A stretch of DNA of 53,361 nt. It comes from Promethearchaeota archaeon (lineage in GTDB: Archaea > Asgardarchaeota > Lokiarchaeia > Sigyniarchaeales > SOKP01). Shown piece by piece: positions 12,708 to 50,668 of this stretch. The number at the start of each line of letters is the position of its first letter. The first letter of the stretch is position 1. The notes beneath the pieces were generated by a model. That model made no database searches, was not told where the DNA came from, and saw nothing but the letters and a program-made list of their open reading frames with translations. Where the stretch lies: positions 1 through 53,361 of the forward strand of contig JAUWZR010000002.1 in NCBI GenBank assembly GCA_030615235.1, given 5' to 3'. Position numbers and translations under genes: made by a program.

Positions 12708-13736
12708 ATGAAGATTGATTATTTAGATAAGTTCACGGGAACATTATTGGGAGTATGCATTGGAGACACTTTAGGGCATCCTTTTGAAGGGGTGCTTAGG
12801 GAGCGAATATACTCCCACTTTAGTGACTTTAAAGAATTTATAACGAGCAATAAAAAGTTATTTAATACTTATACTGATGACACTCAATTAACGTTGCATA
12901 CAGCAAAAGCGCTTATTCAAGGATCTGGTTTCAATGTAGACTATTTTATTAGAGAATATGTCGAATGGCTTGAAGATCCCCCCATTGGTCCCGGGTATGG
13001 ATGTATATCGTCGATTCAAAAACTAAAATACGGAATTTCGTGGAAAAAAGCAGCTTCAAACTCAGGAGGTAACGGTACAGCGATGAGAGTTTCACCCATT
13101 GGATTATTTTACAATAAAGATACAAAAAATCTAAAGAATTTTGCATTACAATCAAGTATTATTACTCATTCTCATCCAGCAGCTTCTGCAGGGGCGATAG
13201 TAGTTGCAAGAGCGATTGCTTTTTTAATAGATAAAACAATAGAAACAGAGTTCTCAGTAGATGAATTTTTTGATGTCATTATTTCTTCTATCTCTAATTC
13301 GAGAGAAGAAATATGGGATGAATTTATAGAGATTTTGAATAAAATAAGGAATAGTCTTAACATTGCGTTAACAGCTGGGTTAATCAAATTCTCTCAGGCG
13401 GGCGTAAAATCGCCTTATTTTATCGAGGATTATCTAGGTAAAGCGTTTGTTCACCCATATACTCTGAGCACAGTAGCCTGCGCAATCTTCATCTTTTTAA
13501 AAAATCTGAATTCATTTGAAGAGTGTATTTTCCAATTAGCGACTGCTGGCGGTGATAGTGATACTGTGGGGGCTATAGGGGGTAGTTTAGCAGGAGCTTA
13601 TTTCGGTAGAGGAAATATACCCAGTGATTTGATACAATTAGTAAGAGGTTATAAAGACATCCTTAAAATTAGCGAAGAGCTATGGTTAAAATTCAAAGAG
13701 AGAGATATAACAAAATCTACTCAAAACTATCTATAA
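12708..13736 (+). CDS. ADP-ribosylglycohydrolase family protein
   Basis: GTLLGVCIGDTLGHPFEG, YTDDTQLTL, GNGTAMR and TAGGDSDTVGAIGGSLAGAYFG are typical family motifs. Confidence 0.8.
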   Translation: MKIDYLDKFTGTLLGVCIGDTLGHPFEGVLRERIYSHFSDFKEFITSNKKLFNTYTDDTQLTLHTAKALIQGSGFNVDYFIREYVEWLEDPPIGPGYGCISSIQKLKYGISWKKAASNSGGNGTAMRVSPIGLFYNKDTKNLKNFALQSSIITHSHPAASAGAIVVARAIAFLIDKTIETEFSVDEFFDVIISSISNSREEIWDEFIEILNKIRNSLNIALTAGLIKFSQAGVKSPYFIEDYLGKAFVHPYTLSTVACAIFIFLKNLNSFEECIFQLATAGGDSDTVGAIGGSLAGAYFGRGNIPSDLIQLVRGYKDILKISEELWLKFKERDITKSTQNYL

Positions 13737-14286
13737 TGATGTCCATTCTATTAGCACATTCTTCGCAAAATTTTGGCGGTTTTTGATCGGTGTCTTCTAA
13801 ATCATTTGAGAATTTCATTACGCAGAAATTTGTGCAATGCTTCAATCCAAATGTATGACCTAGCTCGTGAATTGCCTCTTTAAGGATTCTCAACTCAAAA
13901 AGAGCTACATTTTCAGTTCTTCTATAAAATTCCTCTCTTAAGCGGGTAACTGAAATTAAAGCGCTCCCAAAGCTCTTGTTCTTAGGCAGGTCGGCAACAC
14001 CAAAAACAAAGTTTAAAAATTTAGAAAAAATATCAACATCCAAAACACCCAGGACACGATTATATCCATTAATAATAACGGCCTTAATTAATCTTCTTTT
14101 TACCTTTAAAGCGTCATATTGTCTTTTAAAAGAATCATAATCAGATTCTAATAAAGGAAGTGGGTCGGGAAGATTAACAATTTTGAATCCGTATTTTTTA
14201 AAGAACCACTTTAAATCTTTTTTTAATACAATTAATATCCCAGGATCAATATCTCCAATTCTCTGTAAGTAAATTATTTTCTTCAT
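13717..14286 (-). CDS. amzA: Archaemetzincin (zinc metallopeptidase)
   Basis: HELGHTFGLKHC followed by the Cys cluster CVMKF...FCEECANR. Size is about 190 aa. Its 3' end overlaps the convergent gene by 20 nt. Confidence 0.85.
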   Translation of the reverse strand: MKKIIYLQRIGDIDPGILIVLKKDLKWFFKKYGFKIVNLPDPLPLLESDYDSFKRQYDALKVKRRLIKAVIINGYNRVLGVLDVDIFSKFLNFVFGVADLPKNKSFGSALISVTRLREEFYRRTENVALFELRILKEAIHELGHTFGLKHCTNFCVMKFSNDLEDTDQKPPKFCEECANRMDIIIDSFE

Positions 14287-15756: not shown

Positions 15757-16851
15757 TTAATTTTGGATTTTTTTTTTTAATTCTTTGAGAATGTTATCTA
15801 CTTTTTTATCCTTAATCCAATATCTTATTTTGGAGGATTGTAATAGAGATTGAATTTTACCATTAAGCTCTTTTAATTTTTGTTTATCCTCTTCAGATAG
15901 TTGAGGAATTTCTTCAATTTTTGACGCTCTAATCTTTTTTATATGTTCTTCTATAGAGGGGATATCTACTTGCTCCTTTCCTTCAATAAGAGCTTTCCTT
16001 AATACTTCTTTAATATTCTTAACCCAACCTTCTATCCAAGGATATGGCTCACTTTTTTTCGGATTTCTAATTTGAATTTTTTTCCTCTTAATGATAATTA
16101 AATCGTCAGGACAAGAGTTTTCGCACGCTCCACAATAAAAACATTCTTTTTCATTACACGCAATTTTACCATATTTTAGGACTTCTTCGGCGCTCTCAGG
16201 GATGTAAAAAGATTCTACGGGGCAGATATTAACACAAGTTTTGCAATTTTCTGGAGAACATTTATGCAACATATTCTTTTTTATTATAATTTCTCCTTCG
16301 ATTGGGGAATCAATAGAAAAGCAGTTGGTAGGGCATTCTTTTGCAATTTTATAGTATTCAACTATATTATTTCTTTCACGTACATCTAAGCATCGCTGAC
16401 AAGTCTCATTTTCTTGATCTTCAATGCAATTCTCAGAATCAATTTTATAAAATTTTTCGATAGAAGGAAATTCATCAAATGAAATATGTCCTCTTGGTTC
16501 GATATTATCGTGAAATGCGTCATTAGGACACACAATTACACAAAGCATGCAATAACAACATTTTTCATGATCAATTAGAAGTTTAGGATTACTTTTATCA
16601 ATTTTTTCTTGAGCGATATCTGAAATAGGTCCTAACTCTATCGCCTCGACTGGGCATACAAGCTTACATAAACTACAACCTATACATTTAGTAATGTCGT
16701 AAGTGAGTTTTTTTTTAACTTCTTTAAATTTCCAATTTAGAAATAATTGATTTGGATCAACTTCTAAACATTTTTCAATAATATCTTCATTATCTTGTGT
16801 TTTTTCTGATTTTAGACCTGAAGTAATATTTATCAGTCCTTCAATAAACAT
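15757..16851 (-). CDS. Polyferredoxin-like protein with multiple 4Fe-4S binding motifs
   Basis: Repeated CxxCxxCxxxCP motifs: CIGCSLCKLVCP, CCYCMLCVIVCP, CKTCVNICP and CFYCGACENSCP. The C-terminal tail is charged and helical. Confidence 0.8.
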   Translation of the reverse strand: MFIEGLINITSGLKSEKTQDNEDIIEKCLEVDPNQLFLNWKFKEVKKKLTYDITKCIGCSLCKLVCPVEAIELGPISDIAQEKIDKSNPKLLIDHEKCCYCMLCVIVCPNDAFHDNIEPRGHISFDEFPSIEKFYKIDSENCIEDQENETCQRCLDVRERNNIVEYYKIAKECPTNCFSIDSPIEGEIIIKKNMLHKCSPENCKTCVNICPVESFYIPESAEEVLKYGKIACNEKECFYCGACENSCPDDLIIIKRKKIQIRNPKKSEPYPWIEGWVKNIKEVLRKALIEGKEQVDIPSIEEHIKKIRASKIEEIPQLSEEDKQKLKELNGKIQSLLQSSKIRYWIKDKKVDNILKELKKKIQN

Positions 16852-17195
16852 TAAATATATTTAATTATCGTATTGTATAATTTCAAATAAGATTAATTGT
16901 TATAAGTTAGATATAAAATTTTTATAATCTTTTAGTTGTTTAAATAAAAATGATCAATTTAAAATTCGAAATCAGTTAGAAACAAAATAATTTATTCATA
17001 ATATGAAAATTCGATTTTATATATTAGGAGATATATTAAAATATGCGAAGAATTGAAAATCTGGACAAGCCTTTAATAGTAAGTATGTATATGATGAATA
17101 AAAAAGTATGAGCTTTAAAAAGTTATAATTTTCAAATCATTTAAATTTCAATTTATGTTATATTGTGATTAAATCATATAAAAATAAATTTTAAA

Positions 17196-17507
17196 TTGAT
17201 AAAAATGTCTGCTAATTTGGAGATTTTTGCTTTCTATTATAATACTCCTGAAGACGAATCAAAAATATTACTTAGGCAAAATTTAAGTGATTCCTATGAA
17301 GAATTAAAAAAAATTGCTGAGAAATTTAAATTAATAGATGAAATTCCTTCTATGGAAACTATGCAGAATATTATAAATTCAAATTCGTTTTATAAAATAA
17401 CTATAGACAACAATTTTTTTATATACATCCAAAAAAGCGTTATTACATTTAATATTAAAACAGATTCAAAATTTTTTAAAATCGAAGGTAAAGTCGTAAA
17501 GAATTAA
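17196..17507 (+). CDS. Hypothetical protein (103 aa); the only plus-strand ORF in the island
   Basis: ORF only, with no motifs. Confidence 0.3.
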   Translation: MIKMSANLEIFAFYYNTPEDESKILLRQNLSDSYEELKKIAEKFKLIDEIPSMETMQNIINSNSFYKITIDNNFFIYIQKSVITFNIKTDSKFFKIEGKVVKN

Positions 17508-17754
17508 ATTATTTCATTGAGAAGTTTATTAAAGCTTTCATTTTTTTATTAAAGTCCCTATATTTACTAATAGTTTAATTTTTGGCATATTATCTACTCA
17601 TACAATATTTTTCTATTTTTAACTCTATTATAACCAGTTAATTTTCAATCTAAAGAAAATGTTCACTATCATTGAAATCTATTCAATTCAACAAAATCAT
17701 ATTTGATAATTTTAACCTAATTATAAATTAAAAACTCAATAATAGATAAAGAAC

Positions 17755-20124
17755 TTATTTTAATCTTTTAAGATCATCATACAGATCAGTTCTTTTTGAA
17801 TTTTTGGGGATCTTTCTACTCAATAAGCATGAGTTTCTATTAGAATTTGTGATATTAACAAATTGTAGAAGTTTAGGATATAGATCTTCAGGATTAAACG
17901 AATAAGCCATATCTTTACTAAACCCTACACATAATAAATTATTGTTAATGTGGACACCATAATCTTCTAATCTATTCTTTAATAAAATACCATAAGCAGT
18001 GAGTTGTGGTAATGATCTATATATTTCATCCTCATCTTGTTTATAGTCAGCAATTATTAAGTATCCATTTATGAAAAGAATTATATCAATATGACCAATG
18101 TTAAATAAGTTTGAATTTTCAATAGGCTTCCAAACGGGGGATTCAATTGCTATAGTATTATTATCATTTGTTATTACATAAGCCAAAATAGGTGGATGGT
18201 CTGGTTTCTTGCCTATTCTATTTTTTTTATAATATTCAAAAACCTTTTGAACATATTTACACAAAAAAAAGGAAGAATCATATGCTTTTAATTCATCTTT
18301 AAAAAAATCTTTTATATATTCAAATTTTAAGTGCTCAGCATAAGAGCCATAAAATTTTAACATTGAGGCTCTGGGATTATCGTTAGACATGAATATATCA
18401 CGAGGAAAGTTTTCTCTCCAAAGATCATTAAGAAAGTTATAAAGCCCTAGTTTTAGTTGATCATTATTGATGATATTTAAGCGTTCTTCTTTCCATCTAA
18501 AAGGATATGTAATACTTTGATGTTTAAAATCCTTCCGCTTTAATTCTTGTATAGTATTAACCCAATCTATAAAGTATCTTTTATAATATTCTGTATGGTT
18601 TACTTTTATAAATTGACGAATTTTTTCAAATGTATTAGGGTCACTAAACGATGTTCTATTTCGAATTACACGTAATACCCCGCTGGTTCCAAGTATATTA
18701 TGAATAAATAATTTATTTCCAAATTCTTTTGGCTCCATATCTAAAGATTGATATAATTCAAGTAAAAATTGAGTCTCATTGTGATAAAATTCTTGTAATG
18801 ATTTTCTCATCATTTTAATAAAAGTTTCTCTACTATATATCTGCCCTTTATACCTTCCTATATAATCTGCTATATAATCATATAACCGATTGAAATTTTG
18901 ATCATTCACATGTCTAAAACTAAATTCAGACCCAAAACATTGTTCTAATTTCTTAGGAGTTGCTATATCTTCTAAACCACTTGTCTTTTTAAATGTGTAG
19001 TAAAGTAAAGAAAATGCAAAGTTCTGTGGAAAATAATAATCTATTTCGTTGTTTTTATTTATATCCAAAATTGGAAAATCGTTTACAATTGCACAATCAA
19101 AAATTGCCATTGCGTTTTCAATTGAATCACTTATATTAATTCTTAAATCAGGACTTAAAAAAGATTCTAATTTATTAACATATTGAGTTAAATAATTTTC
19201 TACTTTCTGTTGATATTTATCTTGTTCTAGAACAAAATATTCTAACATTATTTGATGTAAAACTTCAGTAAAATTAGTACACGGCATATTAAAGTTTTCA
19301 TTTTCAAGTAACAAATCAAGAAAGTCCGTCTTGTTCAATTTAAGATCTTTTTCATATTTCAAGAAAATAAAACACAAAACCGCTGCTAAAATTTTTGGCT
19401 TCTTTTTTTTCAAACTAATAAAAAAAGACTGAAATTTATTTTCTCCCTCAATTGAATCAATAATTTCCCAAAAGTCCTCGGAAATTTTTTCGGAATCACC
19501 CTCCGAAAAGTTAATGTCATTTAAATTTCTATTATTTAGATATTCAGCATATTTATGGATATATTTATTAGTTAATTCGAAATATTCATTCTCAGTTAAT
19601 TTGTCAGCATTTATTAACTCAAATATGAAATTATATTCGGGAATTCTTTTAAGATGGCTTGAAATTGTAGAACAAACGCTGTTTAAACTTGATAAGGATA
19701 AATTCAATATTTTGGCTAAATCTTTTCGGACCATATTTTCACCTAATCTAGCAAGGTTGAAATAAATCAAAGAAGCTGCTATATAAATGGGATTTTTTAC
19801 TTTTCTTGTCCCAAAACTCTTATAAAATTCATATAATGAGAGGAGGTTTAAAATATCCTCATATATCTTAATGCAATCTTCTTGAAAAGTCTTAGTTAGT
19901 TTGTATTTTAATTCAAAATTTAATTTATTTATGTGATCATCAAGATAAACAAAAATTTTATTCCAATACTTCCTAGTATCACTAACTTGGATTTTTTGCT
20001 TTAATTCATCTTTTTGAATTTCATTATTATCCCAAGATGATTCAGAACCGCATGAATTTATATCATCACGGCTAATTTTTGGTCGGTTCTTATCTGGACA
20101 ATTAAGGTTGCCTTTTTCTCTCAC
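17755..20124 (-). CDS. Large protein with helical (possibly TFIIB/cyclin-like) repeats and a C-terminal RecB/Cas4-type PD-(D/E)xK nuclease domain
   Basis: The C-terminus NIGHIDIILFINGYLIIADYKQDED...LPQLTAYGILL matches the RecB-family motifs GxhD, (D/E)YK and QxxxY. Three N-terminal segments resemble cyclin-box repeats, for example VKNPIYIAASLIYFNLARLGENMVRKDLAKILNLSLSSLNSV. GTG start. Confidence 0.55.
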   Translation of the reverse strand: MREKGNLNCPDKNRPKISRDDINSCGSESSWDNNEIQKDELKQKIQVSDTRKYWNKIFVYLDDHINKLNFELKYKLTKTFQEDCIKIYEDILNLLSLYEFYKSFGTRKVKNPIYIAASLIYFNLARLGENMVRKDLAKILNLSLSSLNSVCSTISSHLKRIPEYNFIFELINADKLTENEYFELTNKYIHKYAEYLNNRNLNDINFSEGDSEKISEDFWEIIDSIEGENKFQSFFISLKKKKPKILAAVLCFIFLKYEKDLKLNKTDFLDLLLENENFNMPCTNFTEVLHQIMLEYFVLEQDKYQQKVENYLTQYVNKLESFLSPDLRINISDSIENAMAIFDCAIVNDFPILDINKNNEIDYYFPQNFAFSLLYYTFKKTSGLEDIATPKKLEQCFGSEFSFRHVNDQNFNRLYDYIADYIGRYKGQIYSRETFIKMMRKSLQEFYHNETQFLLELYQSLDMEPKEFGNKLFIHNILGTSGVLRVIRNRTSFSDPNTFEKIRQFIKVNHTEYYKRYFIDWVNTIQELKRKDFKHQSITYPFRWKEERLNIINNDQLKLGLYNFLNDLWRENFPRDIFMSNDNPRASMLKFYGSYAEHLKFEYIKDFFKDELKAYDSSFFLCKYVQKVFEYYKKNRIGKKPDHPPILAYVITNDNNTIAIESPVWKPIENSNLFNIGHIDIILFINGYLIIADYKQDEDEIYRSLPQLTAYGILLKNRLEDYGVHINNNLLCVGFSKDMAYSFNPEDLYPKLLQFVNITNSNRNSCLLSRKIPKNSKRTDLYDDLKRLK

Positions 20125-20787: not shown

Positions 20788-23604
20788 TCAGGAATTTGAA
20801 GGAAAGATTAATTCCTTGAATTCCTTCGTGTCTTTAATATAATTTAATTTTGTATCCATATTTGCTGTTTCTTTATATTTCTCATTCAGTTCGATTGCTT
20901 TTTCTAATAATCTTAAAGCTTCTTTTTTATTATTTCTAAGGGATTCAATACAAGCTTTCTGATAATATATATTGTCATTATTTTTATCAAGTTTTAATAC
21001 TTGATTATAATATACCATGGCTTCATCGTATCTTTTTAATTCCTGCAACGCAACTCCTTTATTGACTAATGCTGAAATTTTATTTGGTTGAATTTCCAGT
21101 ACTTTTTCGAAATATTTGATCGATTCTTGATATCTCTCTAAGTCTATTAAAGCGCTACCTTTATTTACCATTGCATAAGTATTATACGGGTCAATCAACA
21201 TTGCTTTATCATAAAGATCTATTGCTTCCGCATATTTTTTTAACATAACTAAAACATTTCCTTTATTTACTAATGCATAAGTATTATTTGGATCAATTTC
21301 CAACGCTTTATCATAAAGATCTATTGCTTTTGCATATTTTTCTAATTTAGATAATGCTATTCCTTTATGAAATAATACAAAAGGTTCATTTGGATTAATC
21401 TCTAATGCTCTATCATAAAGAGCTATTGCTTTCTCATATCTCTCTAAATTTAAGAATATTTTACCTTTATTGACCAATACCATAGGATGATTAGGTATAA
21501 TCTCTAATGCTCTATCATAAAGAGCTATTGCTTCTTCATATCTTTTTAAATCAGACAATACATTTGCTTTATTAACTAGGGCTAAAAAATCATGCGGGTC
21601 AATTTCCAGAGCTTTTTCATTATAATCCATAGCCTCCTCGTATCTCCTTAATTCATACAATGCAATTCCTTTATTAGTTAATGCTCTTAGGTGATTTGGA
21701 ATAATCTCCAATGCTTTATCAAAATAAGTTATTGCCTTTTTGTATTTTTTTAAAGCATTTAATGCTGTCCCTTTATTGATTAATGCTTTGGGTTCATGAG
21801 AATTGATCTCCAATACCGTATCACAATTTTCTATTACTTCCCCATACCTCTTTAAGTTTATTAGGGAATTACTTTTATTAACTAGTGTTTCAATATCATA
21901 AGGATTAATATTCAATATTTTGTCATAATTTTCTATTTCCTGTTCGAATTTTCCTAAAGCTGATAACGCGATCCCTTTATTAAAAAACGCTTCAGTTTTA
22001 TATGGGTCAATTTTTAAAGTTTTATCATAATACTCAATTGCTTTTTGAATTTTTTTCAACTTATATAACGCAATACCTTTATTAACTAATATATCAGTAT
22101 TATTCTGGTCTAATCTTAATGCTTTATCCCAACATATTATTGCTTCTTTATAAAGTTCTAATTTTGATAATGCTACTCCTTTATTAATTAATATTTCAAT
22201 CTTATTTGGATTAATATTTAATACTTGATCAAAATATTCTATTGCTTTTTTATGACTCCCTACGTCAGATAAGACAATTCCAATGTTGAATAATGTATCT
22301 GTGTCATTCGGATTAATCTCTAAAGCTTTGTTAAAACATTCTATTGCCTCTTGATATCTTCCTAAATAAGCTAATGAATTTGCTTTATTGAATAAAATTT
22401 CAAAAATATGAGGGGTAATCTCTAATATTTCATCATAGTATTTCATTGCCTCTTCAAACTCTCCAAAATAAAAGGAAAGATTTGCATTAGAACTTAGAGA
22501 TTCTATCCTCTCTGTTACACTCACATGTATTTTTTTAATAGTTTCTTCTTCTAAATTTTGAATTATGGGTTCTAATTGAGGTTCTTCAAAGATTTTAAGA
22601 GAATTCCATTTAATATCCTCCCTACTCTCCCATTTTGGTTGAGTTGGATTCGAATAAAAAATTTTACGGAAAGCAATCCTAAATTCTTTATTAATTTTTA
22701 TAATAGAAAAATTATTTTGATAATATGAACCCTTATAGGATGCACCTCCAATATAGAGATAAGCTCGATTTTTAATTCGATCCGCCTCATCTATAAGTTC
22801 ATTATGAAAATGACCAGATAAAATAATATGGCTTCTTTTTGCCAATTCGCTATATGTAGCGATTCTTTTAGGATTACTTTTTTTTTCAAATTCATGCAGA
22901 TCATCTTTAGGATGATGCATTACAATAATACTGAGTTCTTTAGTATTATAATCTTTTTTTGTAATAATTTGATTAGATTTTATTAAGATTTGAAGTAAAG
23001 GTAACCCAATCCATAATTTACCTTTACATTGATCATTATAAGCGTACCATGCAGAATTAAACACTATAAATCTAATTCCAGAAATGATTTTTTTTCCAAC
23101 TAGATAATTCTTATAATTTCCAATAATCAAGGGTGTTATACCTAAATCTTTTTTGAAATTGATAAAAGGTCTAAAAAGTGGTTCAAATTGCTTAAGTTTT
23201 TCTAATTTTAAATAATCATCAGCCTGTTCATAAGAACTTGGTGGTATTGCGATAATTTTATCCCTATCAATATCATGATTACCGGAGGATATAATTATGT
23301 TTTCAGGTCTAATATTTGTGATTTTCATTAACTTTAATAACCACTCTTTTGCTAATTTATAATCTGCGATTTTTCCCGCCCAGGCTATATCCCCAGAAAT
23401 TACAATAATTTGGGGTTTCCAAAAATCATCGATTTTTTCTAAAGAATTTAATAATTTATTTAGTTCATTTTCTCTTTCTGCATACTTCGTTTGATTTTTT
23501 CTTAGAATTTCATTACGATTAAAATGCAAATCTGAGATGTGAAGTATATTTATACAAGATTCTTTATATCTACTGAATTTCTGTTTTATTATTTCTTCAT
23601 TCAT
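20788..23604 (-). CDS. Calcineurin-like metallophosphoesterase fused to about 16 TPR repeats
   Basis: MPE motifs ILHISDLHF, VISGDIAWAG, SSGNHD, VMHHP and LSGHFH are in the first about 330 aa. About 16 units of 34 aa follow (xLxNKGxALxxLxxYxEAIxxYDKALEIxPN). There is no P-loop. Confidence 0.8.
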   Translation of the reverse strand: MNEEIIKQKFSRYKESCINILHISDLHFNRNEILRKNQTKYAERENELNKLLNSLEKIDDFWKPQIIVISGDIAWAGKIADYKLAKEWLLKLMKITNIRPENIIISSGNHDIDRDKIIAIPPSSYEQADDYLKLEKLKQFEPLFRPFINFKKDLGITPLIIGNYKNYLVGKKIISGIRFIVFNSAWYAYNDQCKGKLWIGLPLLQILIKSNQIITKKDYNTKELSIIVMHHPKDDLHEFEKKSNPKRIATYSELAKRSHIILSGHFHNELIDEADRIKNRAYLYIGGASYKGSYYQNNFSIIKINKEFRIAFRKIFYSNPTQPKWESREDIKWNSLKIFEEPQLEPIIQNLEEETIKKIHVSVTERIESLSSNANLSFYFGEFEEAMKYYDEILEITPHIFEILFNKANSLAYLGRYQEAIECFNKALEINPNDTDTLFNIGIVLSDVGSHKKAIEYFDQVLNINPNKIEILINKGVALSKLELYKEAIICWDKALRLDQNNTDILVNKGIALYKLKKIQKAIEYYDKTLKIDPYKTEAFFNKGIALSALGKFEQEIENYDKILNINPYDIETLVNKSNSLINLKRYGEVIENCDTVLEINSHEPKALINKGTALNALKKYKKAITYFDKALEIIPNHLRALTNKGIALYELRRYEEAMDYNEKALEIDPHDFLALVNKANVLSDLKRYEEAIALYDRALEIIPNHPMVLVNKGKIFLNLERYEKAIALYDRALEINPNEPFVLFHKGIALSKLEKYAKAIDLYDKALEIDPNNTYALVNKGNVLVMLKKYAEAIDLYDKAMLIDPYNTYAMVNKGSALIDLERYQESIKYFEKVLEIQPNKISALVNKGVALQELKRYDEAMVYYNQVLKLDKNNDNIYYQKACIESLRNNKKEALRLLEKAIELNEKYKETANMDTKLNYIKDTKEFKELIFPSNS
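20800..22480 (-). repeat. 102-nt periodic coding repeats (TPR array), with some neighbouring units nearly identical
   Basis: Near-duplicate runs are visible, for example ctctaatgctctatcataaagagctattgc at about 21401 and about 21503. These correspond to RYE(E/K)AIALYDRALEI units. Confidence 0.8.
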
Positions 23605-24680: not shown

Positions 24681-27600
24681 TCATTCAATTTTGTTTAATG
24701 AATCTGGGATTGAGCAATTTGGAGCTACCTTAATAATATAAAATTTTGGATTTAATAAAGTTAAATAATCATCTAATGAAATCTCAATCTCCTTATCTGT
24801 ATAGATTCTTAAATCAATGTCATTTTCTTTAATTTTTTTAAGATCTTCTGGTAAAATTCTTAATTCTGGAAGCTCAACCCATAAGTGTGTTAAATTGAAT
24901 AACTCATGGAGGAAATTTGGAAATTTGCAATTAGTTTTTACCTTAATTTTGAAAGTACAAATATCTTTTGGATTCCAAAAATCATTTGAAAACTCTATAA
25001 ATTTGTCAGTTATGACCAGTTGCTGGATTTGCTTGAAATGTATTAAATATCTTGGTATTTGGTCAATAAGCTCTGTATTTACCTCAAGATATAATAAGTT
25101 TCTACATTCTTGGACAAAATTAGGTATAAAATTATTATCATCAATTCTAATATGAGTTATTTTATCGAAATTACTCTCTAATAAATCAAAAAATCTACTT
25201 ATTCTTGAACCTGAAACTCTTAAATGAGCAATATTTTGAGTATTTGAAAATTGTATAGGTTTTCTATGCGAGATCGAAATTTCCATGCGATTATTTTTAT
25301 TATCTTCCCAAAAATTTTCTTGGAAATCTTGAGAACCCCCGAATGAAATATGTAGACACTTTATTTTTGGAAGGTTTTTAATTAATTCTGGAATTTTATC
25401 TAATGGAGGATTTATCCAACGTATATAAGATAAATTTTTAAGATTCTCCCAAGATTTTGGTAAGTCTTTTGCTGCTATATCAATTATTTGAAGATGTGTT
25501 ATATTTTCTAATTTATTAAGCGATTCACTTAATATGCATCTTTTATTTACTCTAAGTTCTAATCTATACTTAGTATCTTCACTTCCAAATTCCCCTGTTA
25601 ATCCGGTTAACGTAATCGATGTTATCAATAGTTGAGTAAATTGAGATAAATTACCAAAAAAGTTAGGTAGCTCTGTTAATTGAGGAAGATTAATTCGAAG
25701 ATGCGTTATATTTTTCATTGAAATTTCGTCTTTGGGTAATTTACAATCATTTCTTACTCTTGCTAAAAATATACCCTTATTCGAATTATTAAGAAAGTCT
25801 TCATTAGAAGTAGGTAGAGGATCTTCTGAAATAAGCATTTTTTTAATATAAGGTGATAAAAATACCCAAGCTTTTAAATTAGTAACAAATGGGAAATCTA
25901 TTCTTAGATGGGTTAAATTCTCGAAATTACCTATTATATCCGGTAAAATGCTTTGGCCTCTTGAAAATCCGAATAAATATATTCCTTTACCAGAGATTTT
26001 CCAATAGTTTATTTTTTTAAAGAATTCTTTTGTAAGATTTTCTTGATTGGTGATTAGAAGCTTATTTAATACGCCATTAATAGATACATTTTTTGGGAAT
26101 CTAGTAAGTACCTTAATCCATACTTTTTCAATATGAGAAGGAATAGTTAACTCATTTAATATAAATTGTGTAGGGAGGTTAACTAATATTCGAGAACTGT
26201 CTAATTGGTTTTGAGCCATATAATCTTTGATATCTTCTAGATTTTGAGATATATTAATTAAAATGTTCGGAAACATATCCCATTTAAATACAATATCCGG
26301 TAAAATATTTGATATTTGAGAATTGATGATTACCTCGTTTAACTTAGAGCAAGATTTTAGACTTTCAGGAAAATTAAATTTAAAGAAATTTTCTATATAA
26401 ATTGATTCAAGATTCTTTAATAAAGAAATTGATTCATGCAGATTAAGTACAAATTGATGACCTTTTCCTTGAATATCAATTATTTTTAAATTTTTGATTG
26501 TAGTACTTTTCCCAAATTTAATTAATTCTCCCTTAAGTTCTAAAGATTCTAATTCTTCTAAGGACCAAAATAAATCTTTAAATTCAAAATAGTTTTGCAT
26601 TTCAAATATATTCAATAAACTCTTTGGTATTTGTAATGTTAAAGAACTAATATACTCATTAGAAATTGTAACCCAATAAGTATATTCACCAGAATAATCC
26701 TTTAAATGATTTAAATAATCAATAATGACAGCATCCTTAATTTTTAAATGAATTTTTTCCAGTTTCGGCGTTAATTGCCCTCTAATTTCTATTTCATCAT
26801 CTACAATTAGTAAATTATCGTCAACATAATTGATGGATGGTAATGTTTGCTTTTTTGGGTAAAATGAAATATATGTATTTCTCATTAAATTGATAAATTT
26901 AAGATTCTTGAACTCATGCCACCATGAGTTAATTGATTTTATATTGTTATATTGAATATTTATTCTAAATAACCTGTCTAAATTTGTTAAAGTATCTGGA
27001 AGTTCTTTCAATTCATTATGGTCTAAATTTAGAACTTCTAAATTTTTTAATCTACCAATATCTTTAGGAAGTTTTGGTAATTCATTATCTTGAAGAGCTA
27101 ACTTCTTTAAACCTATTAATTTATAAACCCCTTTGGGGATATGTTTTGTTTTTATATGATCTAGGTATAATTCCGATACACGATCATTTATATCAATTAC
27201 ATAACCTTGACTTCTCTTTATTTCTTCAAAATCTGAAAGATTTCTTAGTCTGTGATTTCCTATTTCAACTTCAATTTCTCCTAATGAATTTGCATCGGAT
27301 TTACAAATTTCAAATTCTTGAAATCTTTGTTTCAATTTAGAACTATAGTGTTCAATAAAACCTTGGTATTCTTCTTGAAAGAAATATTTAAATTGTGTTT
27401 TTGTTTTATCCATTTTTATAATACCACTAGAATAGATTACATCCCAACTTCCTTTTTTGTTATATCGAAATTCACTAAGCTCATTATCAAGAATGGGAGT
27501 ATAAGGATCCGCAATTATACTTACTAAATCTTTGAAATCATTTTCTACAGTACCCACAATTCCCATCCTGTTCAAAATAGTATTTTCATTTTGGCGACTT

Positions 27601-29561
27601 TCGAAAAGATTATACCAATCATCTTTAGATGGATTAAATTTTTTTTCGATGATATCTACATTACTTTCGGAGATTATTTTGATGATAAAGGGTTTCATTA
27701 ATAATTTCTTAACGAGCTTATCCTTAATCTTCTCATAGTTTATCCCATAATTTTCATTGATCTTTTTTAATCGTGCTAAATCTTTAATATCTGAAAGAAT
27801 ATAACTAGTACCAGTAGGAATTTCAGTATCTTCGAAGTTATTGAATTTATCATTTTGAAAAATATACCGTTTAAATTTTCTATAATTTCTGATTATTTCT
27901 TTAGAATTTATCCAATCTACTAACCTTGATGTCAATAATATAATTAAGTGCTCATAGTTCTTGTCTAATTCAATCATATCACAGAGATTGTTTAGAAACT
28001 CTCCTCTCTCGTCTTCAGTTAATTCCTCAAAACCATCAAAGATTAGTAAGACATTTCTTTTTTGTCCCTCTTTGAATGCAATTAATCTAGTTATCTTGCA
28101 TAAATCTTTATTAAAACCTCCTAATATATTTTCAAACCGATCTTCATATGAGCGAAGATGAAAATAAAAAGTTGGGATTTTTCTCTGCTTGATATATTCA
28201 AATGCGAGATATGATGCATTCCATGTTTTTCCCAATCCCATGTATCCTAGTAATAAAAAAATTCTATTTTTTTCCTGAGGATTCTTAAGGTTTCTAAAAA
28301 AATTTTCAAAAAAATGCTCAAGATCTGGGTTTTTTTCAAAGAGATCTAAATTGAATCTAGTTTCGAACCTTGAAGCTAGATCTACTAATTCTAACTGTTG
28401 TAAACAATAATTAAGCAAAGTTTCATCTTCAAATTCAATTATTTCATTTTGATTTTTCGCTCTTAATCTCCATAAAGGCATTTTAAAATTTTCAATAGTA
28501 AAATCAATCTGACTCCTCCAATTTATAATTTTTGGGTTCATAATCTCTAATTTCGAAATCAGGCGTGAACTTATAACATCAAAAAATGAAGGATTTTTTT
28601 CATAATAACCCTTAAGTAAACTTAATGTTTGAAATAATTTATCGAAAATTTTTTCTTTTTGAATAGTATTATCTTCAAAAAAATTATCTATCTCTGCAAT
28701 AATTTGAGAAACAATTTCTCTCAGATCGGTAAGTCTGATTTTATTAATTAATTCTTCTCTATTTGAGTCTTTTAGCTTAATTTGAAGGAACTTGTCTAAA
28801 TAATCATATAAGCTATTAATAAAAAGTTTGATATTATCTAAATTCATAGTAATTATGAAAGTTAAAGCCCACTCTATGATATCTCGAATATTTTTATCAA
28901 ATTCTTCAAGAAATGCTTGTTCTAAATTTGTATTAAGAAAATCTTCTAAACCCTTCTCAATTGTCTTCGAATCCTCAAAAAACATTTTATAATCATCTTC
29001 AACTATATCACTCTGTAATTTATACCTTCTTAAAGCATTTTTAAATGCATTTTCAATTTTGTCATTAGAGCAAAAAACTTCATAAAAACCTTCTGAAAAG
29101 GTAATTGCGTCATTATCATAAACTTTCCTTTTTGTTCCTATCGAGCAAGGCAAATATTCAGAGACTCTCTTTGCAATCTTTAAAGATTCACAAGAATTAA
29201 AAATTATAATTTTAATGATTTGTTCAAAATCTTTGAGGACACCAATAGTTTCTTCAAAAAGAAACTGAGAGCCATAACTTTTCTCAAAATGAATATCATC
29301 TTCAAAATAAAATCCACTAGATTGTTCACCATGTCCAGCAAAATGGATCATTTGAGGTTGATATCGTGAGATACATTCAAAAAATTCATTTCTTTCGGTG
29401 GCAAAAGCAGATTCAAGATAAATAAATTCACGAAATGGTGACTTTTCAATTATTTTCTTAATTGTCTTGAATTCTTTATCAATACGAGTCTTAACTGTAC
29501 TTTCTTTGAAATTTGCGGAAAGAAATAAAATGGTAAATTTCTTCTTTTTTAATCCTAACAT
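24681..29561 (-). CDS. NLR-architecture STAND protein: N-terminal caspase/CHAT-like domain, NACHT P-loop NTPase, long LRR region (1626 aa)
   Basis: His-Cys dyad context MIHFAGHG ... IIIFNSCES (aa about 70-130). Walker A LLLGYMGLGKTW (nt about 28221-28262). NACHT-type Walker B LLIFDGFEEL (nt about 28023-28052). Canonical LRRs LKKLALQDNELPKLPKDIGRLKNLEVLNLDHNELKELPDTLTNLDRL (nt about 26930-27130). Irregular LRR-like units with N(I/L)THL(R/Q)I continue to the C-terminus. Confidence 0.75.
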   Translation of the reverse strand: MLGLKKKKFTILFLSANFKESTVKTRIDKEFKTIKKIIEKSPFREFIYLESAFATERNEFFECISRYQPQMIHFAGHGEQSSGFYFEDDIHFEKSYGSQFLFEETIGVLKDFEQIIKIIIFNSCESLKIAKRVSEYLPCSIGTKRKVYDNDAITFSEGFYEVFCSNDKIENAFKNALRRYKLQSDIVEDDYKMFFEDSKTIEKGLEDFLNTNLEQAFLEEFDKNIRDIIEWALTFIITMNLDNIKLFINSLYDYLDKFLQIKLKDSNREELINKIRLTDLREIVSQIIAEIDNFFEDNTIQKEKIFDKLFQTLSLLKGYYEKNPSFFDVISSRLISKLEIMNPKIINWRSQIDFTIENFKMPLWRLRAKNQNEIIEFEDETLLNYCLQQLELVDLASRFETRFNLDLFEKNPDLEHFFENFFRNLKNPQEKNRIFLLLGYMGLGKTWNASYLAFEYIKQRKIPTFYFHLRSYEDRFENILGGFNKDLCKITRLIAFKEGQKRNVLLIFDGFEELTEDERGEFLNNLCDMIELDKNYEHLIILLTSRLVDWINSKEIIRNYRKFKRYIFQNDKFNNFEDTEIPTGTSYILSDIKDLARLKKINENYGINYEKIKDKLVKKLLMKPFIIKIISESNVDIIEKKFNPSKDDWYNLFESRQNENTILNRMGIVGTVENDFKDLVSIIADPYTPILDNELSEFRYNKKGSWDVIYSSGIIKMDKTKTQFKYFFQEEYQGFIEHYSSKLKQRFQEFEICKSDANSLGEIEVEIGNHRLRNLSDFEEIKRSQGYVIDINDRVSELYLDHIKTKHIPKGVYKLIGLKKLALQDNELPKLPKDIGRLKNLEVLNLDHNELKELPDTLTNLDRLFRINIQYNNIKSINSWWHEFKNLKFINLMRNTYISFYPKKQTLPSINYVDDNLLIVDDEIEIRGQLTPKLEKIHLKIKDAVIIDYLNHLKDYSGEYTYWVTISNEYISSLTLQIPKSLLNIFEMQNYFEFKDLFWSLEELESLELKGELIKFGKSTTIKNLKIIDIQGKGHQFVLNLHESISLLKNLESIYIENFFKFNFPESLKSCSKLNEVIINSQISNILPDIVFKWDMFPNILINISQNLEDIKDYMAQNQLDSSRILVNLPTQFILNELTIPSHIEKVWIKVLTRFPKNVSINGVLNKLLITNQENLTKEFFKKINYWKISGKGIYLFGFSRGQSILPDIIGNFENLTHLRIDFPFVTNLKAWVFLSPYIKKMLISEDPLPTSNEDFLNNSNKGIFLARVRNDCKLPKDEISMKNITHLRINLPQLTELPNFFGNLSQFTQLLITSITLTGLTGEFGSEDTKYRLELRVNKRCILSESLNKLENITHLQIIDIAAKDLPKSWENLKNLSYIRWINPPLDKIPELIKNLPKIKCLHISFGGSQDFQENFWEDNKNNRMEISISHRKPIQFSNTQNIAHLRVSGSRISRFFDLLESNFDKITHIRIDDNNFIPNFVQECRNLLYLEVNTELIDQIPRYLIHFKQIQQLVITDKFIEFSNDFWNPKDICTFKIKVKTNCKFPNFLHELFNLTHLWVELPELRILPEDLKKIKENDIDLRIYTDKEIEISLDDYLTLLNPKFYIIKVAPNCSIPDSLNKIE

Positions 29562-48787: not shown

Positions 48788-50668
48788 CTAATAGTATTTC
48801 TCTATCAAAAAATCTATCTCCTCCTCCACTAAATCAAATAGTATAAAAAATAATATGTCTATTATCCTTCTGGGGGGGGTTTCATTTCGTATTTGAGAAT
48901 AAGTATTGGGGGATATTTCCCTTAATTTATCTAATTTTGTTTCATCTACGGAAACAATATTGTGAATTATAGTTGAAGTGAAATATCGAATTAAATCAAT
49001 TATTATTAATTGATATTTAGATCGAAATAGTGTAATATTAGGGATTGGTATTTCTTCTTCTAATTTAGTCTTGCTTCTCTTTATCATAATATTTTTTGCC
49101 TTAAATAAAAATTTCACAATTTTTGAATTAAGATAAGCAAGAAAAAATAAGTAATCTATGTCGTTCTTCCCTTCCCTTAACCATAAGAAATAAGTATCAG
49201 AGGTGGCATAATATGGATCTTTAGTATATCCAAACACATTTGATTTGGATATATAACTAAAAAATATTTTAGGTTCCTTATCATAGTAAGGTTCGAGATT
49301 AATTAATTTTCTTTTATGTCCAGTATCATACTGAGTAATAAAACTCCCTCTTCGTGGAAAATATATGTTTTTAATATTTTCTTTGGCATTCCTAAGTATA
49401 TTTTCAAGTTCTCCTTTGGATTGGTTTAAATATGCTGTTAGATTAGGATATTTCTTCTGTATAAGTTCATTACGTATTGTTAAGTTTTGATTTTTAAATT
49501 CATTTTTATCAAGATAGATTAAATACCCGGAAAAATCATTTTTGTCATAATTGAAAGGTTGTATGACTTTACTTTTATATATTTTTTTTAATTTTTGTTT
49601 CTCTCCATCGTGTAGTTTTATGAAATCATCGTAGATCTTGATAAATATGTCCGAATCTACAATTTTGAGGTTATTATTCTCTTTTAATATAAAAACATCA
49701 TCTTTAATCAGAATTAATCCATTTCTAATGACAAAAAAATCAATTAAATTTGATATAACCCCCTTAAACCTGCAGTGTTTCTCAATCTTTTCAACAACAT
49801 TTTTTACATCAAGAGGATACTTTAAAATCCAGCCGCTATTTTTAGATAGGTCTTTATTTGTCATTGCTGATTGGTATTTTAACAAATGTGGGGAATTTTC
49901 TTTATTTAATATATCTGTAAAGATCTTTTCGGGTGGTTTTTCATTAAATTGGTTATTACAAGGTTTAACTTGAATTATATCAATTTTCTTATCGATTTTT
50001 TTTTGTTTTTCTTCCTTATTCTTTTTTTGAAGTACAAAAATACAATTATGTTGACCTTTAGCATCTTTAAAAACTTTAATTCTTGATAAATCAATATAAT
50101 GTATCATGAAGCAATCGTTTGTAACGTGAGGTTTAAGATACTTTATCCCTGTCTTTTTTGATTTAGTTAACCAGTAATTAGTTGTGATAAAAGATAATAA
50201 CCCACCCGGTTTTAATTTTTCTATTCCTAAATGAATGAAAAAATAAAATAAATCCATATTTCCAACGAAATATTTTTTACAAATCGAATAGTTCTTTACA
50301 AGCTCTTGAAAAATTTGAGCGTTATAGTTTTGTCCTAAATAAGGTGGATTTCCTATAATGATATCAAATTTTTCGTTAACGCTTGATCCTAAGAAATTCT
50401 CAAATTTAAACTCTACATTCGGATAAATTTTTATAAGAGGAGTTTTTAAATTTTGATCTAATTCATAGGCAGTAATATCAGTAAATCCTTCACCTATTAG
50501 ATAATTAAGAAAGATTCCTTTACCTGCACTAGGTTCGAGAATTTTAATCTTATCAATGGTAAACTCATTATGTGTGGAAAAATAATGTTGTTTAATGTTT
50601 TTAACCATAAACTCCGCTATATAATCAGGGGTAAAAATTTGGCTTAATCGATTTTTATTCAAAACCAT
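48788..50668 (-). CDS. Gamma-class N6-adenine DNA methyltransferase (Eco57I/TaqI-like) with a C-terminal target-recognition region
   Basis: FTPDYIAEFMV (motif X), ILEPSAGKGIF (motif I) and IIIGNPPYLG (motif IV, NPPY). I recognised no nuclease domain or partner gene. Confidence 0.75.
   Translation of the reverse strand: MVLNKNRLSQIFTPDYIAEFMVKNIKQHYFSTHNEFTIDKIKILEPSAGKGIFLNYLIGEGFTDITAYELDQNLKTPLIKIYPNVEFKFENFLGSSVNEKFDIIIGNPPYLGQNYNAQIFQELVKNYSICKKYFVGNMDLFYFFIHLGIEKLKPGGLLSFITTNYWLTKSKKTGIKYLKPHVTNDCFMIHYIDLSRIKVFKDAKGQHNCIFVLQKKNKEEKQKKIDKKIDIIQVKPCNNQFNEKPPEKIFTDILNKENSPHLLKYQSAMTNKDLSKNSGWILKYPLDVKNVVEKIEKHCRFKGVISNLIDFFVIRNGLILIKDDVFILKENNNLKIVDSDIFIKIYDDFIKLHDGEKQKLKKIYKSKVIQPFNYDKNDFSGYLIYLDKNEFKNQNLTIRNELIQKKYPNLTAYLNQSKGELENILRNAKENIKNIYFPRRGSFITQYDTGHKRKLINLEPYYDKEPKIFFSYISKSNVFGYTKDPYYATSDTYFLWLREGKNDIDYLFFLAYLNSKIVKFLFKAKNIMIKRSKTKLEEEIPIPNITLFRSKYQLIIIDLIRYFTSTIIHNIVSVDETKLDKLREISPNTYSQIRNETPPRRIIDILFFILFDLVEEEIDFLIEKYY

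Follow-up and report, generated by a model that had tools for sequence, protein, structure and literature searches.

What is a nuclease doing at the end of a protein that otherwise resembles the core of a basal transcription factor, and is the resemblance real? The question is raised by a gene on the minus strand at positions 17,755 to 20,124 of a 53,361-nucleotide stretch of DNA (the window) from a Promethearchaeota archaeon (contig JAUWZR010000002.1, assembly GCA_030615235.1). A sequence-only reading, made by a model without database searches, had proposed that this gene encodes an unusual fusion of TFIIB/cyclin-like repeats and a RecB/Cas4-type nuclease. The present analysis leads to the same architecture: TFB-type cyclin-box repeats and an intact RecB/Cas4-type nuclease occur in a single protein, a conclusion to which we give a probability of about 0.9. 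Both folds are known, the architecture and the family are new. The literature search found no description of a fusion of TFB/cyclin-box repeats with a RecB/Cas4 nuclease, in line with the earlier remark that no described family of this kind was known, and Pfam, NCBIfam and PADLOC contain no model for the N-terminal part.

The gene is an uninterrupted open reading frame of 789 codons followed by a stop codon. It starts with GTG, and this start is credible because the deduced N-terminus, MREKGNLNCPDKNR, lines up with those of the orthologs. A word-indexed search returned only 10 homologous proteins, a picture overturned by an exhaustive profile search (with a hidden Markov model), which brought the family to 336 clusters (50% identity, E ≤ 1e-3), 187 of them with E ≤ 1e-10. 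The homologs start at about positions 47 (full-length proteins), 182, 305 and 445 of the profile, which coincide with repeat boundaries, and many proteins of 226–292 aa span only positions ~545–805. These truncation points define five modules, the repeats R1, R2 and R3, the connector D4 and the nuclease (NUC), which lie as follows in the window protein (AF2, AlphaFold2; pLDDT, predicted local distance difference test; pI, isoelectric point):

17755..20124, minus strand: complete open reading frame, with TFB-like triple cyclin-box repeats, connector and RecB/Cas4-type nuclease (open reading frame listing; full-length orthologs with 38–80% identity; AF2 model of mean pLDDT 73)
19984..20124, minus strand: N-terminal tail, residues 1–47, predicted to be disordered (pLDDT <50 for residues 1–48; no CxxC upstream of repeat 1)
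19600..19983, minus strand: repeat R1, residues 48–175, TFB/TFIIB-type cyclin box (hhalign against TFB repeat 2; R1–R2 homology; coordinates checked by translation)
19228..19599, minus strand: repeat R2, residues 176–299, second cyclin box, with an extra helix (228–239), acidic in this protein (R1–R2 and R2–R3 hhalign; pI 4.8)
18841..19227, minus strand: repeat R3, residues 300–428, third and more divergent cyclin box (R1–R3 hhalign; R3 against TFB repeat 2; coordinates checked by translation)
18541..18840, minus strand: domain D4, residues 429–528, connector of six helices that may be a partial, degenerate fourth repeat (helices of high confidence in model 2)
17758..18540, minus strand: nuclease module, residues 529–789, RecB/Cas4-clade PD-(D/E)xK fold (model 2; Foldseek against the PDB; stand-alone homologs)
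17992..18144, minus strand: catalytic core, residues 661–711, with E661 (motif I), G677-H-I-D680 (II), D693-Y-K695 (III) and Q707-xxx-Y711 (IV) (translation; conservation)

The family is thus modular, with 0 to 3 repeats before a constant nuclease, and the window protein has all three. In some members the nuclease module stands behind unrelated N-termini that have no Pfam hits. This modularity and the many stand-alone nucleases identify the nuclease as the core of the family, to which the repeats are accessory.

The identity of the nuclease was examined with an AF2 model of residues 429–789 (model 2), built on 37 sequences, which has a pLDDT of 93.2 and a predicted template-modelling score (pTM) of 0.90. 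All the significant Foldseek matches of the nuclease sub-model in the PDB are RecB/Cas4-clade PD-(D/E)xK exonucleases. The best is the DinG-fused nuclease of Finegoldia magna (9kqh, E=2.2e-4); the others include the Cas4 proteins SSO0001 (4ic1) and Pcal_0546 (4r5q), MGME1, EXO5, RecE, AdnAB, RecB and AddAB, and the viral structure library adds RecB-family phage exonucleases. The motifs GHIDIIL, ADYK and QLTAY, on which the sequence-only reading had based its assignment, are found by translation at residues 677–683, 692–695 and 707–711. The active-site motifs follow the order of the RecB family, and in both AF2 models their residues lie on the predicted strand, strand, strand and helix of the core.

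These residues are 98–100% conserved among about 140 homologs (E 138/138, D 139/141, D/E 142/142, K 141/141, Q 140/140, Y 139/140). The enzyme is therefore very probably active, as predicted from its conserved active site. The nuclease assignment proposed earlier is borne out, as the catalytic D, E and K, whose lack of conservation in homologs would have refuted it, are conserved, but the extent given to the domain is not: the module comprises about 260 aa (529–789) instead of the last 110 or so, its boundary being set by the stand-alone homologs of 226–292 aa, which consist of this module alone. It also has features of its own, an N-terminal β-hairpin (FxHQxITYPFRW) and a helical part with a conserved PRxS and H643; S587 of PRxS is conserved in 119/120 sequences, H643 in 129/132 and C732 in 135/140. 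The Pfam model PDDEXK_1 (PF12705) matches residues 676–721 of the window protein with 17.7 bits for a cut-off of 22, and 9 of 10 orthologs at E<1, while two stand-alone homologs reach the gathering score of 22 bits (P0064, 22.3; P0068, 22.1). The window protein matches no PDB sequence, and searches at the sequence level are too insensitive for it.

Cas4 shares with this module the RecB-like PD-(D/E)xK fold and the ordered motifs E, GxxD, D/ExK and QxxxY, and the structures of SSO0001 and Pcal_0546 are matched with Foldseek probabilities of 0.94–0.99 and a template-modelling score (TM-score) of about 0.4. In terms of sequence, the Cas4 model TIGR00372 gives 12.6 bits against a cut-off of 65, and the PADLOC Cas4 model E=0.003. 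Whereas Cas4 has four cysteines that bind an iron–sulfur (Fe–S) cluster, the window family conserves only C732, with neither the N-terminal cysteine nor the C-terminal CxxC...C, and the window protein has a large N-terminal extension, unlike Cas4. The 53-kb window holds no interspaced direct repeats indicative of a CRISPR array, and no cas gene turned up, either among the window neighbours that were scanned or in the homolog loci. A CRISPR-associated Cas4 was rejected on these grounds: no array, no cas genes, no Fe–S cysteines.

The nuclease domains of MGME1, EXO5, RecE and RecB/AddAB/AdnAB belong to the same structural clade, have a similar size and motif order, although no homology to them is detectable at the sequence level. 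These enzymes all act on DNA ends or single-stranded DNA, and MGME1, RecE and RecB have no Fe–S cluster. The window family differs from them by its N-terminal β-hairpin and helical sub-domain and its invariant PRxS, H643 and C732, and it is not fused to a helicase. In the DinG of F. magna (9KQH), a RecB-like nuclease likewise serves as a fused effector module; its partner is a superfamily 2 helicase instead of a cyclin-box array, and the identity is only 16%.

The region upstream of the nuclease had been described as helical, which agrees with the full-length AF2 model, helical from residue 47 to about 600–650. When this model is searched against the PDB with Foldseek, Brf2, the TFB of P. woesei and TFIIB come on top (probability ~1.0, E from 3e-3), and cyclins K, C and T are the next matches. 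In the viral structure library, TFIIB/Brf1 homologs of giant viruses come first (E=1.6e-4) and a rudivirus TFB is also present. Profiles were compared with hhalign since the E-values and TM-scores are modest for a whole-protein query. Each module was represented by an alignment of 37–62 homologs, and the TFB alignment was seeded with the P. woesei sequence, verified to be 100% identical to 1D3U_B and 1AIS_B.

Homology is evident among all three repeats (R1–R2, P=3.3e-17; R1–R3, 3.7e-10; R2–R3, 3.4e-8), a mutual relationship that we rate as strong as that of the two repeats of TFB itself (P=2.3e-17), used here as a yardstick. R1 matches cyclin repeat 2 of TFB with P=5.4e-6 and 86% probability over 81 columns; for R2 and R3 against TFB, P is about 3e-3 to 5e-3, and controls with the nuclease module give P=0.05–0.85. 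The score of R1 with TFB repeat 2 is 34.9, compared to 9.7±1.9 (maximum 16.1) for 150 column-shuffled decoys, none of which (0/150) reaches the real score; reversed decoys score at most 15.4. The weaker scores, R1 with TFB repeat 1 and R2 and R3 with TFB repeat 2 (19.5–21.7, R3 being at 19.5), are also above every decoy. R1 and R2 taken together align with TFB co-linearly over 136 columns, from H2–H5 of repeat 1 to H1'–H3' of repeat 2 (YIAASLIYFNLARLG opposite SVMAACVYAACRLLK and KPKILAAVLCFIFL opposite SPAGLVAAALYIAS, for example), and each repeat has a helix-turn-helix (HTH)-like pair of helices 4 and 5, as in TFB. Residues 48–428 are three TFB/TFIIB-type cyclin-box repeats, which arose when a TFB-core-like domain was duplicated in tandem. 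The sequence-only reading had counted "at least three" segments resembling TFIIB; these correspond to three homologous repeats of about 125 aa, and the cyclin/TFIIB fold that it suspected is found in both the structural and the profile comparisons. The similarity of D4 to R1 and R2 is only weak (P ~2e-3), and no PDB entry among the top 50 Foldseek hits matches this domain.

How much of a TFB does the protein retain? The TFB/TFIIB/Brf core (PF00382; 1AIS, 1D3U, 1VOL, 4ROC) is the best structural match to the repeats in the PDB and viral libraries, and has in common with them tandem five-helix cyclin-box repeats that are co-linear helix by helix. The TFB core has two repeats, whereas the window protein has three and a connector, packed differently, with R2 and R3 acidic; its sequence is below every Pfam threshold, and its C-terminal nuclease is not annotated in any of the listed TFIIB-family matches. 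There is no zinc ribbon, as residues 1–47 contain no CxxC. In hhalign comparisons with full-length TFB, every significant match (P≤0.0046) lies within core residues 123–293, which leaves the B-reader and B-linker without a significant counterpart. PF00382 is matched neither by the window protein (E≤10), nor by its nine closest homologs (E≤1), nor by ten more distant ones (E≤0.1). Lacking the zinc ribbon, B-reader and B-linker that make TFB an initiation factor, the protein is not a transcription factor. Asgard archaea have bona fide TFBs, such as the Hodarchaeal TFB found among the TFB sequence search hits.

A zinc ribbon upstream of R1 occurs in only 2–3 of the ~37 homologs that have this repeat, P0010 and P0014 among them; being so rare, the ribbons led us to reject the idea of a full TFB paralog plus a nuclease. 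P0010 (L004 2085–5213), with 1042 aa and 38% identity the most divergent of the orthologs, is extended at its N-terminus by about 270 aa; the extension begins with a CPEC...CPTC zinc ribbon, giving the protein a more TFB-like overall layout. Separately, in one subfamily a small zinc-ribbon protein (about 104–145 aa, CxxC...CPxCG) is encoded directly upstream on the same strand (L007 5369–5683, L017 5360–5674, L014 7248–7685 (+)). These small proteins are at least 49% identical between loci and their ...GNIFVCPECG is reminiscent of the TFB ribbon; no such gene occurs in the window.

Every family member with a named source comes from Asgard archaea. The window itself has a G+C content of about 25–36% and encodes lysine-biosynthesis enzymes (Dap genes, LysA), Cdc48, PAS histidine kinases, an archaemetzincin and tRNA-Pro. 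This gene content, and the fact that the closest homologs of the 789-aa protein are in metagenome-assembled genomes of Promethearchaeota (Asgard), indicate that it is a chromosomal segment of an Asgard archaeon. A viral or mobile origin was rejected, the window being chromosomal (Dap genes, LysA, Cdc48, tRNA-Pro) and no relatives having been found on IMG/VR contigs with the patterns that could be used. Neither the window nor the homolog loci contain paralogs or split versions near the target gene. Throughout the family, the nuclease is strongly conserved while in the repeats mainly hydrophobic core positions are. The median pI of all modules is basic family-wide (8.4–9.5), which is consistent with nucleic-acid binding.

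A general mechanism, which we consider somewhat better supported than not, is that the repeat array acts as a recognition or gating module for a nuclease of DNA ends or single-stranded DNA. The array, with its HTH-like H4–H5 pairs and variable surfaces, would recognize a nucleic-acid structure or a protein partner, and this recognition would position or gate the nuclease. By analogy with its structural relatives (Cas4, MGME1, EXO5, RecE, RecB, AddAB, AdnAB), which do so, the nuclease would degrade DNA from ends, flaps or single-stranded regions by two-metal PD-(D/E)xK chemistry. As to the biological setting, genome conflict or defence against foreign DNA is our tentative choice, ahead of housekeeping end-processing, and then of a role directed at TBP or promoters.

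This choice comes from the neighbouring genes. Directly upstream of the target, beyond a 660-bp intergenic region, lies a gene for a 938-aa metallophosphoesterase–TPR (tetratricopeptide repeat) protein (20788–23604, minus strand), with an N-terminal calcineurin-like domain followed by ~16 TPR repeats; its N-terminal part matches PDC-S60, a candidate defence family of PADLOC (E=8e-24). At 24681–29561 (minus strand) is encoded a 1626-aa STAND/NACHT-like NTPase with leucine-rich repeats (LRR) and a weak N-terminal match of the SAVED_CHAT type, which resembles an NLR-like conflict or signalling protein. Its ortholog in L001 is 84% identical and is preceded by a DUF4062 protein.

In the paralog locus L007, the neighbours are HEPN-AbiV and PIN proteins, and in L017 AbiJ_NTD4 and DUF4145 proteins. 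A HerA/FtsK-like (DUF87) membrane ATPase stands beside family members of two different architectures (L008 5162–6898, L014 12587–14311 (+)); the two ATPases are 57% identical, have N-terminal hydrophobic segments and a C-terminal zinc ribbon, and match PADLOC mad8 and HerA. L014 also has a KAP NTPase and a 1925-aa RHS/YD-repeat protein (RHS toxin) nearby. Eco57I-like restriction-modification (RM) or methyltransferase genes are found a few genes away from stand-alone nuclease genes. The conflict-island signal from these neighbours is suggestive without being decisive.

The loci of stand-alone nucleases share a divergently transcribed neighbour (L011 6461–7810, L012 3776–4417 and L013 311–952, all on the minus strand; ~40% identity over 194 aa). 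In the window, about 30 kb from the target, a 626-aa protein (48788–50668, minus strand) matches the PADLOC type II/type IIG methyltransferase models (E=1e-29).

The gene downstream of the target is the following:

15757..16851, minus strand: poly-ferredoxin of 364 aa, with multiple 4Fe-4S motifs and a C-terminal coiled-coil tail (Pfam Fer4 families; downstream of the target, on the same strand)

A poly-ferredoxin of ~355 aa is encoded directly downstream and on the same strand in all the orthologous loci, down to 38% identity (L001, L003, L004), and is absent from the more distant paralog loci L007–L009. It may be a partner of the target or merely syntenic. That it is an obligatory partner was rejected, as the association is conserved within the orthologous group only and not in the paralogs. 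The spacer between the two genes is 903 bp long here (16852–17754), compared to 72–164 bp in the orthologous loci. It holds an antisense open reading frame of 103 aa without a family match (17196–17507, plus strand), with inverted repeats of 25 nt and 80% complementarity on either side (17097–17121 and 17526–17550); the content of the spacer may be a small insertion. A promoter and terminator scan found 30 sites, for 33 expected, and is uninformative here, as its models are of bacterial type and the host is an archaeon. Further along, the genes for an ADP-ribosylglycohydrolase (12708–13736, plus strand) and an archaemetzincin M54 (13717–14286, minus strand) converge with a 20-bp overlap; the pair is adjacent in L001 and L003 too, with no overlap of the called genes there.

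Several observations weigh against the proposed architecture, mechanism or setting. In single-sequence and profile searches, Pfam, NCBIfam and PDB sequences give no TFIIB match. The TM-scores of the full-length model to TFIIB cores are modest (0.31–0.43) and the root mean square deviations are high, so that the repeats are packed differently from the canonical TFB core. R2 and R3 of the window protein have a pI of 4.7–4.8, an acidity that makes it less likely that all three repeats simply bind DNA. Concerning defence, L016 and L018 have only metabolic or GTPase neighbours, and the window orthologs are inherited vertically in a syntenic chromosomal region, beside housekeeping genes. No system defined in PADLOC-DB v2 includes the target, which is only a weak Cas4 match there, and no relatives were found on IMG/VR viral contigs with usable patterns. 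The case for defence is one of guilt by association, and the picture is mixed.

The likeness to TFIIB might be generic, the repeats being an unrelated all-α, HTH-containing unit that converged on a cyclin-box-like topology without any link to TFB. This would explain why no member searched matches PF00382, why Foldseek with the full-length model gives E-values no better than 1e-4 to 1e-2 and TM-scores of 0.3–0.4, and why only R1 gives a convincing hhalign score, R2 and R3 staying at P ~3e-3 to 5e-3. However, TFIIB-family proteins come first in two independent structure libraries with a probability of ~1.0, the score of R1 with TFB is about 13 standard deviations above the shuffled decoys and more than two-fold above the reversed ones, nine helices of the TFB core, with its two repeats, are aligned co-linearly, and R2 and R3 are tied to R1 by the homology described above (P=3.3e-17 and 3.7e-10). 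Convergence is therefore improbable in our view. If the relationship is genuine, the repeats could still have kept binding properties of TFB: they would bind TBP and/or TATA/BRE (TFB-recognition element) DNA, and the protein would be a putative nuclease of TBP-bound promoters, for example those of invading DNA, or a competitor of host or viral TFB. The repeats are indeed closer to TFB/TFIIB/Brf than to cyclins in both structure libraries, their sequence profiles also match TFB, and zinc ribbons are present at the N-terminus of a few homologs (P0010, P0014) or just upstream in one subfamily. According to one report (bioRxiv 10.1101/2021.07.29.453957), TFB homologs are also encoded by Asgard viruses themselves, which makes a TFB-centred conflict conceivable. 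Yet the window protein and most homologs have neither ribbon nor B-reader/linker, there are three repeats and not two, with modest TM-scores to TFB cores, and many members lack one, two or all of the repeats. The acidic R2 and R3 of the window protein speak against it as well, and conservation of the HTH-like helices is weak across the family, unlike that of the TBP and BRE contacts in true TFBs. The missing ribbon and B-reader, the acidity of R2 and R3 and the weakly conserved helices somewhat disfavour the targeting of TBP or RNA polymerase, or a decoy role, as imagined by the sequence-only reading, and we regard promoter-directed cutting or competition with TFB as a doubtful proposition.

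A housekeeping nuclease of repair or recombination deserves more weight than these two explanations, even if we find it unlikely. It would act in end resection or flap processing like MGME1, EXO5, Dna2 or RecB-type enzymes, with the repeats as a DNA-binding scaffold, and the adjacent poly-ferredoxin may be its redox or Fe–S partner. In structure, the nuclease is closest to exonucleases of repair and end processing. Down to 38% identity, the orthologs occur as a single copy at this locus and keep their synteny with the lysine-biosynthesis genes and Cdc48, and the Fer4 neighbour is kept throughout the orthologous group. Moreover, the HerA-type ATPases beside some paralogs recall the archaeal HerA–NurA resection machinery. 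On the other hand, so great an expansion (at least 336 clusters at 50% identity), in which architecture and repeats vary, is atypical for a core repair factor, every member of named source belongs to a single archaeal lineage, genes of the Abi, HEPN, PIN, KAP, RHS or RM types occur in several neighbourhoods, and the link with Fer4 is lost in paralogs. A role in genome conflict or defence thus keeps our tentative preference as the setting of this nuclease.

Few proteins of archaeal and eukaryotic transcription are as conserved as TFB/TFIIB, whose cyclin-box fold is known outside eukaryotes mainly from initiation factors. Here, the TFB core is triplicated, stripped of the parts that recruit the polymerase and joined to a nuclease, which shows that Asgard archaea have put the fold to use outside initiation. 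These proteins also make up a new modular family of nucleases in which recognition repeats precede an effector nuclease, and may represent a defence or DNA-processing system. Testable reagents follow from it, namely the repeat array, to probe binding to DNA or TBP, and point mutants of D680 and K695. In the improbable event that the repeat array still reads the basal transcription machinery (TBP or TBP-bent promoter DNA), the protein would belong to a putative immune or regulatory system that delivers a nuclease to promoter complexes, for example those of invading DNA or of virus-encoded TFBs. No other known prokaryotes are as closely related to eukaryotes as Asgard archaea, and it is in the eukaryotic lineage that this fold later gave rise to the diversity of cyclins, Rb, Brf and Rrn7. 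The family could also represent a radiation of the TFIIB/cyclin fold into non-transcriptional roles at the Asgard stage, which would be relevant to the origin of these eukaryotic proteins.

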